A stretch of 64,000 bases of DNA from Escherichia coli (GTDB lineage Bacteria; Pseudomonadota; Gammaproteobacteria; Enterobacterales; Enterobacteriaceae). Shown here piece after piece: positions 63,468 to 63,953 of the stretch. The stretch's first letter is position 1. The number at the start of each line of letters is the position of its first letter. The notes beneath the pieces were generated by a model. It was not told the DNA's origin, ran no database searches, and saw nothing but the letters and a program-made list of their open reading frames with translations. A program made the position numbers and the translations under genes. The DNA lies in NCBI RefSeq assembly GCF_003334315.1, contig NZ_QOWR01000008.1; one strand, written 5' to 3'.

Positions 63468-63953
63468 TCAGTTCCTATCCTTCCAGTTGCCTTCCTGCAG
63501 CCCCCCCTCCCTGCTGTATACCCCGGTACCACAACGCGGGCAGCACTTTTCTCCTTCATAATCTTCGTCACACATCACACAAAACCACTTTCTCACCTTC
63601 ACCGTATAATCCGGAACCGTCATACCCTGCAGATGCAAACGACGGGCCTCTTTCTCTGCCGGGTCAAGCCAGGTGCATCGCAGCAGGATTTTCTCAGCGA
63701 CAGTCATCTGGTCATGTTCAAACCACGGTGGTTGTCCGTCATTGCCCCGCTGAAGTGTTAACGGGCATCCACAGGACACACAGCACAAAACGTCCTGGCG
63801 GTTGTGCTTCGCTGCTTCTTTCGCCGTAACAAAATGGCCTTTGCTGTCATTCGCCATATAACAGTTCAGAATTCGCATATTTCCTCCTGAGTTGTCCGGG
63901 GAATACTGAATCCTCCGGTCTGGTGTCACGAACGGTGCAATAGTGATCCACAC
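63468..63953 (-). CDS. hypothetical Cys-rich small protein (putative zinc-ribbon)
   Basis: ORF with CCVSCGC and CVMC...CCPRCG clusters; likely start MRILNCY at 63878; function unknown. Confidence 0.35.

Follow-up and report, generated by a model that had tools for sequence, protein, structure and literature searches.

The small cysteine-rich reading frame near one end of the window (the whole stretch of 64,000 nucleotides of Escherichia coli DNA that we analysed) is an intact, real protein-coding gene with two predicted zinc sites. A sequence-only reading had taken it for a stand-alone ORF on the margin of an islet, but it is the last survivor of a three-gene operon, from which it has been cut off by an insertion of IS100. 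We are almost certain of the identity, family and context of this gene, here called ZnR-B, taken together. As a catalogued item ZnR-B is ordinary: it belongs to a narrow family whose members are listed in databases but whose function is uncharacterised, and the gene itself adds nothing new. The value of the case is in its context, that is, in the tie of a family without known function to alpA and a Rep-like gene of the HUH type, within a module found again and again in the islands of Enterobacterales. This HUH/AlpA/ZnR module is unstudied, and it is the sole part of the locus with a potential for discovery.

The 161-codon ORF on the minus strand at 63468-63953 is present as the sequence-only reading had it, with both of the cysteine clusters noticed there. 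The start that it proposed, at MRILNCY, for a protein of about 136 aa, is borne out by a Shine-Dalgarno sequence, AGGAGG, at 63883-63888 (minus strand), 4 nt upstream of the ATG at 63878-63876, and by the annotation of RefSeq WP_001221617.1, with which the product is identical. The coding sequence occupies 63468-63878 on the minus strand (411 nt, 136 aa plus stop) and specifies a protein of 15.6 kDa with a near-neutral pI of 6.9, which RefSeq labels "zinc-ribbon domain-containing protein" in E. coli genomes ("putative zinc ribbon protein" is also used in the family). The longer frame is another matter: its codons 1-10 are IS100 DNA, including a spurious GTG start, and its codons 11-25 come from the final part of the upstream gene, ZnR-A, in a different frame. 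Since the IS100 copy starts at 63924, the 5' end of the 161-codon ORF is an artefact. In intact operons the Shine-Dalgarno sequence of ZnR-B is contained in the final part of the ZnR-A gene.

Could the whole frame then be a chance or antisense reading frame from which no protein is made, a possibility that the sequence-only reading had itself raised? It is true that the 161-codon form is partly spurious, its 5' end being IS100 DNA, and that the remaining 45 nt upstream hold no promoter-like site. However, pairwise dN/dS values among ZnR-B orthologues lie between 0.10 and 0.32, and for this reason we conclude that ZnR-B codes for a protein. The consensus Shine-Dalgarno sequence, the strong Pfam matches, a ligand pattern that is invariant across genera and a confident AF2 fold all argue in the same direction, and the opposite strand of ZnR-B has no competing ORF of more than 42 aa. 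We give the artefact explanation next to no chance, and for the gene family it is ruled out. The segment from 63200 to 64000 has 100% DNA identity with E. coli strain AHM9C68I.

The sequence-only reading had not been able to assign the ORF to a known family, but such an assignment can be made. In addition to the RefSeq record, residues 4-89 of ZnR-B match Pfam DUF7828 (PF25165) over model positions 2-86 of 87 (E=7.9e-31), and residues 93-124 match Zn_ribbon_11 (PF11682, formerly DUF3279; E=5.7e-18); compared with other proteins that combine DUF7828 and Zn_ribbon_11, ZnR-B is a full-length member and shows no difference. Ligand conservation was judged in an alignment of 32 homologues that are 23-47% identical to ZnR-B. 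In this alignment C33, C36, F53, H55, C100, C103, C113 and C116 are invariant and C68, W98, Y107, G109, G119 and S122 nearly so, whereas C112 of the second cluster is not invariant. The codons of the first predicted zinc site lie within 63675-63782 (minus strand), namely C33 at 63780-63782, C36 at 63771-63773, H55, which sits in an invariant WFEH motif, at 63714-63716, and C68 at 63675-63677. Those of the second, a predicted Cys4 ribbon made of C100, C103, C113 and C116, lie within 63531-63581 on the same strand; here the prediction comes from the invariance of the four residues and from the Zn_ribbon_11 match, in whose region all the ribbon cysteines of the pattern W-x-C-x2-C...C-x2-C are present in ZnR-B.

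Both clusters had been likened to a zinc ribbon. For the C-terminal one this was right, the predicted ligands being C100, C103, C113 and C116 and not C112. The CCVSCGC cluster does supply two predicted ligands, C33 and C36, but it makes no ribbon of its own and would be one half of a CCHC site completed by H55 and C68, two residues that the sequence-only reading had overlooked. Judging from sequence, we thus predict that zinc is bound by a CCHC site in a CoiA_N-like N-domain and by a Cys4 ribbon. The AF2 model of ZnR-B (pLDDT 89.3) has an alpha/beta N-domain, a helical linker and a three-stranded ribbon; a structure search of AFDB50 with it retrieved family members only, all from Enterobacterales, and no structural analogues.

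The family is a narrow one: a search of 1.84 billion cluster representatives gave 126 at E<=1e-3, and all the genome loci with a ZnR gene belong to Enterobacterales. A tblastn search of 50,697 phage genomes gave no ZnR match, and ZnR was found in 32 of 72,556 plasmids. In E. coli itself the gene is common: an 801-nt query is covered to at least 80% in 2805 of 5426 complete genomes, and the exact ZnR-B protein is present on at least 1000 contigs. The earlier view that its function is uncharacterised is confirmed, and the families that it matches are uncharacterised as well. No NCBIfam model matches ZnR-B, no PHROGs or PADLOC model matches ZnR-A or ZnR-B, and our search of the literature for the family names, the accessions and "Ybl85" found nothing relevant on the function of the family; the papers that name the "inovirus Gp2 family", to which a neighbouring gene is assigned, merely list that gene.

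Some database entries call for comment. Two contigs of an actinobacterial MAG, labelled Collinsella sp. (loci L009 and L038), hold E. coli-like ZnR genes at 98% identity; most likely these copies are binning contamination and not an occurrence outside Enterobacterales. The title "DNA-directed RNA polymerase, beta subunit/140 kD subunit", given in TrEMBL and AFDB50 to members of 135-173 aa (for example A0A6N8N922 and B7MMF4), seems to be a COG-style label that was propagated in error. We rejected this identity, a protein of 136 aa without RpoB Pfam domains being compared here with one of more than 1000 aa. Two long multi-hit proteins from the search of representatives, P0141 and P0169, were set aside as spurious, since they are cysteine-free actinobacterial repeat proteins.

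The wider relationships of the protein lead to enzymes that act on DNA. CoiA, a nuclease of the PD-(D/E)XK type that resolves D-loops, has a small zinc finger at its N terminus (bioRxiv 10.1101/2024.02.06.579203). The direct Pfam matches of ZnR-B to CoiA_N (E=0.35) and to DUF7830 are weak. Both CoiA_N and DUF7828 are matched by "CoiA family" proteins of about 270 aa, which belong to mobile elements. In these proteins a central domain, some 150 residues long, stands between the N-domain and a C-terminal ribbon like that of ZnR-B (hhalign probability 95.6%, E=1e-8); in sister proteins the ribbon at the same position is a DNA-binding ribbon of the topoisomerase I type. One protein of this type lies among conjugation genes, in a conjugative element. 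ZnR-B appears to share with CoiA and with the 270-aa family an N-terminal zinc-finger domain of the form CxxC...(W/H)F(E/A)H...C, and shares with the latter a C-terminal ribbon of the Zn_ribbon_11 type (topoisomerase-type in some members). It is nevertheless not a CoiA, because the central nuclease-like domain, some 150 residues, is missing: no Pfam match to a PD-(D/E)XK core was found in ZnR-B, and about 25 linker residues separate its two zinc domains. By its sequence ZnR-B looks like the two zinc modules of a DNA enzyme minus the catalytic core.

Two other resemblances were considered. The family profile gives a marginal, ungapped match of 77 columns (E=0.0026) to RPB9, the subunit of eukaryotic RNA polymerase II with two zinc ribbons. 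Like RPB9 and TFIIS, ZnR-B has two zinc sites with a linker of equal length between them, but there is no match in fold, and the predicted site 1 of ZnR-B is a CCHC site inside a larger alpha/beta domain. Because support from the fold is absent, we regard the match as a coincidence of cysteine spacing and reject the relationship. P2 Ogr and P4 Delta, zinc-finger activators of late genes, are small zinc-binding proteins of P4-like elements, as the ZnR proteins are predicted to be, and the tandem duplication in P4 Delta has a parallel in the tandem pair of ZnR genes downstream of a Vis/AlpA-type gene; however, ligand pattern, size and wider relatives (DNA enzymes in the case of ZnR) all differ. 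Pfam Ogr_Delta, zf-dskA_traR and the TFIIS-type ribbons do not match ZnR-B even at E<=10.

In E. coli genomes free of IS100 at this place, ZnR-B is the last of three co-oriented genes, in the order Rep1, ZnR-A, ZnR-B. Rep1 (189 aa) is annotated as an "inovirus Gp2 family" protein and matches Pfam YagK_YfjJ_C (2e-47) and REP_ORF2-G2P (5e-5). ZnR-A (WP_000270974.1, 133 aa) is a paralogue of ZnR-B, with 31% identity (E=3e-16), and the ZnR-B frame opens 13 nt before that of ZnR-A closes. The alpA gene is on the strand opposite to these three genes. The locus is part of an island of the CP4-44 type, beside cobUST and tRNA-Asn; the CP4-44 of K-12 has lost the module, and its pseudogenes yeeH, yoeG and yoeH, which we also considered, are not related to it. 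The arrangement with ZnR-A upstream, a 13-nt overlap and a YagK/YfjJ-type neighbour is seen in the allele without IS100, which differs from that of the window in nothing else; in the window itself only the tail of ZnR-A is left of this context.

For the comparison across genera, ORFs were called and profile searches run in 34 genome loci, several metagenome loci and one Klebsiella plasmid. The canonical order, all on one strand, is Rep1, alpA, ZnR-A, ZnR-B, Rep2 and a DUF2913 gene, and the same neighbours of ZnR recur in some 30 loci of over 20 genera. Throughout this set a ZnR gene is on the same strand as a YagK/YfjJ-type gene and within a few kb of it (usually no more than about 1.5 kb), with alpA as the usual companion. 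ZnR-A and ZnR-B form distinct and stable orthogroups, always in the order A then B, and the 13-nt overlap is kept across genera. Where a locus has just one ZnR gene, this is of the B type and Rep2 is absent, an observation to be read with the fact that the search for loci was built on a narrow alignment and is biased towards B-type genes; from the occurrence of B-type genes in the absence of Rep2 we conclude that B does not depend on Rep2. One flank of the module is made of island backbone (DUF932, RadC, a YeeP-type GTPase, antirestriction, CbtA/CbeA), and the other is a cargo slot, often with type I restriction-modification genes. No integrase was present near the module in the loci that were examined.

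Rep1 keeps two motifs that are hallmarks of HUH nucleases, H-x-H-hydrophobic and Y-L-(A/S)-K, whereas Rep2 has lost both. Rep2, annotated as "inovirus-type Gp2 protein", lies for example at 7496-8044 of locus L014, 7426-8061 of L020 and 9493-10059 of L044, and the DUF2913 gene comes after it. The loss of both motifs suggests an inactive paralogue that may have been retained for a structural or regulatory role.

Several smaller elements accompany the module outside the window. Directly upstream of the first ZnR gene there is a leader of about 95 nt, of the form ...CCGCCATTCAC...GCCCGTACCGGGACGGC...GCCTGCGTGTCGTCTGGCGGTAAGGAG...ATG, which is found at 10066-10160 (minus strand) of L002, the IS100-free E. 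coli locus, and in 20 other loci (for example at 6488-6584 of L022 and 8501-8596 of L044). It is conserved in at least 14 genera (nhmmer E-values from 1e-25 to 3e-6), more than the adjacent coding sequence, and may serve as an operator, a promoter or a true leader. RNAalifold proposes two short hairpins for this leader with a covariation term near zero, so that an RNA structure is not supported; an Rfam search over the intact operon gave no match, and a search for repeats over the same operon gave only short ones that are probably due to chance. Between alpA and ZnR-A, at least 10 loci (among them L020 near 6363, L022 near 6354, L023 near 6364 and L044 near 8367) have a usually unannotated mini-ORF of 42-44 codons (MEKRRRTQPW.IP.RW.CPRC.RQYCGA.PCPVCF...), a lone Zn_ribbon_11 motif, which is absent from the E. 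coli locus. Finally, a gene divergent from Rep1, at 11097-11297 (plus strand) of L002 and beyond the end of the window, encodes a 66-aa protein (WP_001297900.1) in which a CxxC...CxxC zinc ribbon is followed by a transmembrane helix.

What could the ZnR proteins be doing? Our tentative preference is that they work together with the Rep-like proteins in the processing of island DNA, as zinc-dependent recognition or adaptor subunits; we consider this quite possible, if somewhat short of an even chance. In such a scenario the ZnR proteins would act upon an AlpA-type induction of the island; they would bind DNA, either single-stranded or branched, and/or the Rep-like proteins, and this binding would direct the HUH nuclease to its site, in the service of rolling-circle replication or of mobilisation of the excised island. 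Three observations taken together lead us to favour an adaptor role with the HUH protein. One is a fusion: in P0147 (454 aa) a complete ZnR protein precedes a Rep-like domain, which aligns at E=5e-23 with the YagK/YfjJ protein encoded next to it, and a Serratia long form of 466 aa in AFDB resembles it. Another is the CoiA-like ancestry, and the last is the adjacency of alpA, the ZnR genes being usually directly downstream of it. In Gram-negative PICIs it is AlpA that switches on the genes of the life cycle (PMC6092414). A further candidate for a Rep1-ZnR fusion, P0379, was rejected as a deletion chimera that has no first zinc knuckle.

Several points temper this preference. The near-neutral pI of ZnR-B speaks against it, many DNA binders being basic; zinc ribbons, for their part, mediate contacts between proteins as often as contacts with DNA. 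The fusion has been seen in no more than one or two lineages, the shared gene order of related islands is partly owed to common descent and not to functional coupling, and YagK/YfjJ proteins would be active nucleases on the evidence of their motifs only. The model that AF2 produced of ZnR-A joined to ZnR-B by a GS-linker (10 paired sequences; pLDDT 48.6, pTM 0.35) is too poor to weigh on either side. Accessory proteins and zinc-binding domains do occur with such enzymes, for example the relaxosome accessory proteins and the zinc-finger regions of IS91-type and Helitron HUH transposases. The ZnR genes resemble those of HUH Rep and relaxase accessory factors in being small, in lying beside a gene with HUH motifs and in being occasionally fused to it; they differ in having no sequence relation to any known factor of this kind, and the partnership is drawn from synteny and fusion only.

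One competing explanation is a role in transcription, with the ZnR proteins as small regulators of the zinc-finger type that would act on RNA polymerase or on promoters and so activate island or helper genes downstream of AlpA. This idea would borrow the logic of P2 Ogr, P4 Delta and plasmid TraR by analogy, and not by homology. Islands of the CP4 type resemble P4, whose Delta protein is a tandem zinc-finger activator of the Ogr type; in most genera the ZnR genes are directly downstream of alpA, and AlpA heads the activation cascade of PICIs. The leader conserved in many genera upstream of the first ZnR gene suggests tight regulation, and the marginal match to the RPB9 profile could be counted on the same side. 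We nevertheless find this role unlikely: none of the relevant Pfam families (Ogr_Delta, zf-dskA_traR, TFIIS-type) is matched within the threshold given above and the fold lends no support, both domains have their more distant kin among DNA enzymes (CoiA-type nucleases and topoisomerase-type ribbons) and not among transcription factors, and a protein of 136 aa can hardly be the "RNA polymerase beta subunit" of the TrEMBL name. A different proposal is a host-takeover or counter-defence function, in which a small zinc-stabilised binder, acting without the Rep-like genes, inhibits or hijacks a protein of the host or of a competitor, such as one involved in restriction, recombination or replication. 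Small cysteine-rich proteins of mobile elements are often inhibitors, a neutral pI suits a binder of proteins, and the module lies between a backbone with antirestriction, RadC and CbtA/CbeA genes and a slot whose cargo often includes type I restriction-modification genes. Yet what is constant around ZnR is the Rep-like genes and alpA, and not the variable cargo; ZnR is fused to a Rep-like domain in P0147; and neither PADLOC, PHROGs nor the 50,697 phage genomes yielded a match. We hold this function to be improbable as well.

Still less probable in our opinion, and indeed rather remote, is a part in recombination proper, where ZnR would act with AlpA/Vis and the integrase and recognise branched or single-stranded DNA during excision and integration, as a nuclease-less descendant of a CoiA-type protein and not as the partner of a HUH enzyme. 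The CoiA_N-like N-domain fits this proposal, CoiA being a resolver of D-loops, and so does the vicinity of alpA; the Vis protein of P4, a homologue of AlpA, is an excisionase (PMC6092414). However, the CoiA_N match of ZnR-B itself is weak, the examined loci have no integrase near the module, and in the E. coli operon it is Rep1 that is paired with the ZnR genes, while alpA is on the other strand.

Returning to the reading that we prefer, in which ZnR assists the Rep-like protein, a bolder version of it can be formulated, of which we are rather doubtful. ZnR-A and ZnR-B, the HUH Rep-like protein, its inactive paralogue, AlpA and the 95-nt leader might together constitute an undescribed DNA-processing machine of CP4-type islands, either for rolling-circle replication or as a self-encoded relaxosome, with nuclease-less descendants of CoiA-type proteins as its site-recognition subunits. 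If this were true, it would explain how the common "cryptic prophage" islands of Enterobacterales move without a known apparatus for replication or transfer; and if the module is a machine for replication or mobilisation, ZnR would represent a novel type of specificity factor among those that serve HUH enzymes. Islands of the CP4-44 type are present in about half of the complete E. coli genomes, they carry virulence, restriction and toxin-antitoxin cargo, and the mechanism of their mobility is poorly understood.

The copy in the window is probably a silent relic whose coding sequence is still intact, and it exemplifies the way in which insertions of IS100 and ISL3 dismantle such modules. Upstream, identity to IS100-free genomes stops at 63923. 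The left end of IS100 (TGTCACGAACGGTGCAATAGTG..., also given as TGTCACGAACGG...) occupies 63924-64000 on the plus strand, and istA follows beyond the end of the window. The insertion hit the 3'-terminal part of ZnR-A and lies 45 nt ahead of the ZnR-B start codon, and a comparison of the junctions in L001 and L002 identifies its target-site duplication as GTCTGG, at 63918-63923, the second copy being beyond the window. What remains of ZnR-A are its last 18 codons and the stop (63866-63923, minus strand; 18 of 18 residues identical by tblastn), truncated by IS100 and overlapping the start of ZnR-B by 13 nt. IS100 thus separates ZnR-B from Rep1, from ZnR-A and from the promoter and leader of the operon, and the island runs on past base 64000. 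No promoter-like site was found between IS100 and ZnR-B, whereas the intact locus has one upstream of Rep1; the window copy being cut off from its operon, we think that it is probably silent.

Downstream, Rep2 and the DUF2913 gene are gone, a tblastn search of the 3' flank of ZnR-B with Rep2 detected no remnant, and in their place there are the remnant of an IS100-type end and an ISL3 element. The remnant is a right inverted repeat, CACTTTTCATCCGTCGTTGACA, at 63258-63279 (plus strand), and it marks where Rep2 and DUF2913 were replaced. The ISL3-family element (61538-63258, minus strand), whose transposase has an internal stop, forms the downstream boundary of the surviving context. ZnR-B does lie just outside the right end of this element, as had been noticed from the sequence: the ISL3 inverted repeat ends at 63258, 209 nt from the ZnR-B stop codon.

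The ISL3 element is itself bracketed by terminal repeats of the IS100 type in inverted orientation, TGTCACGAACAGTGCAAAAGTG at 61516-61537 on the left and the repeat at 63258-63279 on the right, and it appears to sit inside a gutted copy of an IS100/IS21-family element; no target duplication is evident for it. The same arrangement of IS100-type repeats and ISL3 occurs in genomes without the full IS100. Other E. coli genomes (H9-H14) have an insertion of the IS110 family, and not of IS100, in the same short region, and the ZnR-B locus seems to attract insertion sequences. On the far side of ISL3, upstream of it, the segment 57108-61153 encodes a PfkB-family kinase with a DeoR-like N-terminal region, a glutamine amidotransferase, a DMT transporter that is split by an internal stop, and a phosphotriesterase-related protein, and this metabolic cluster is followed by a fragment of a gamma-glutamyltransferase gene at 61193-61521.
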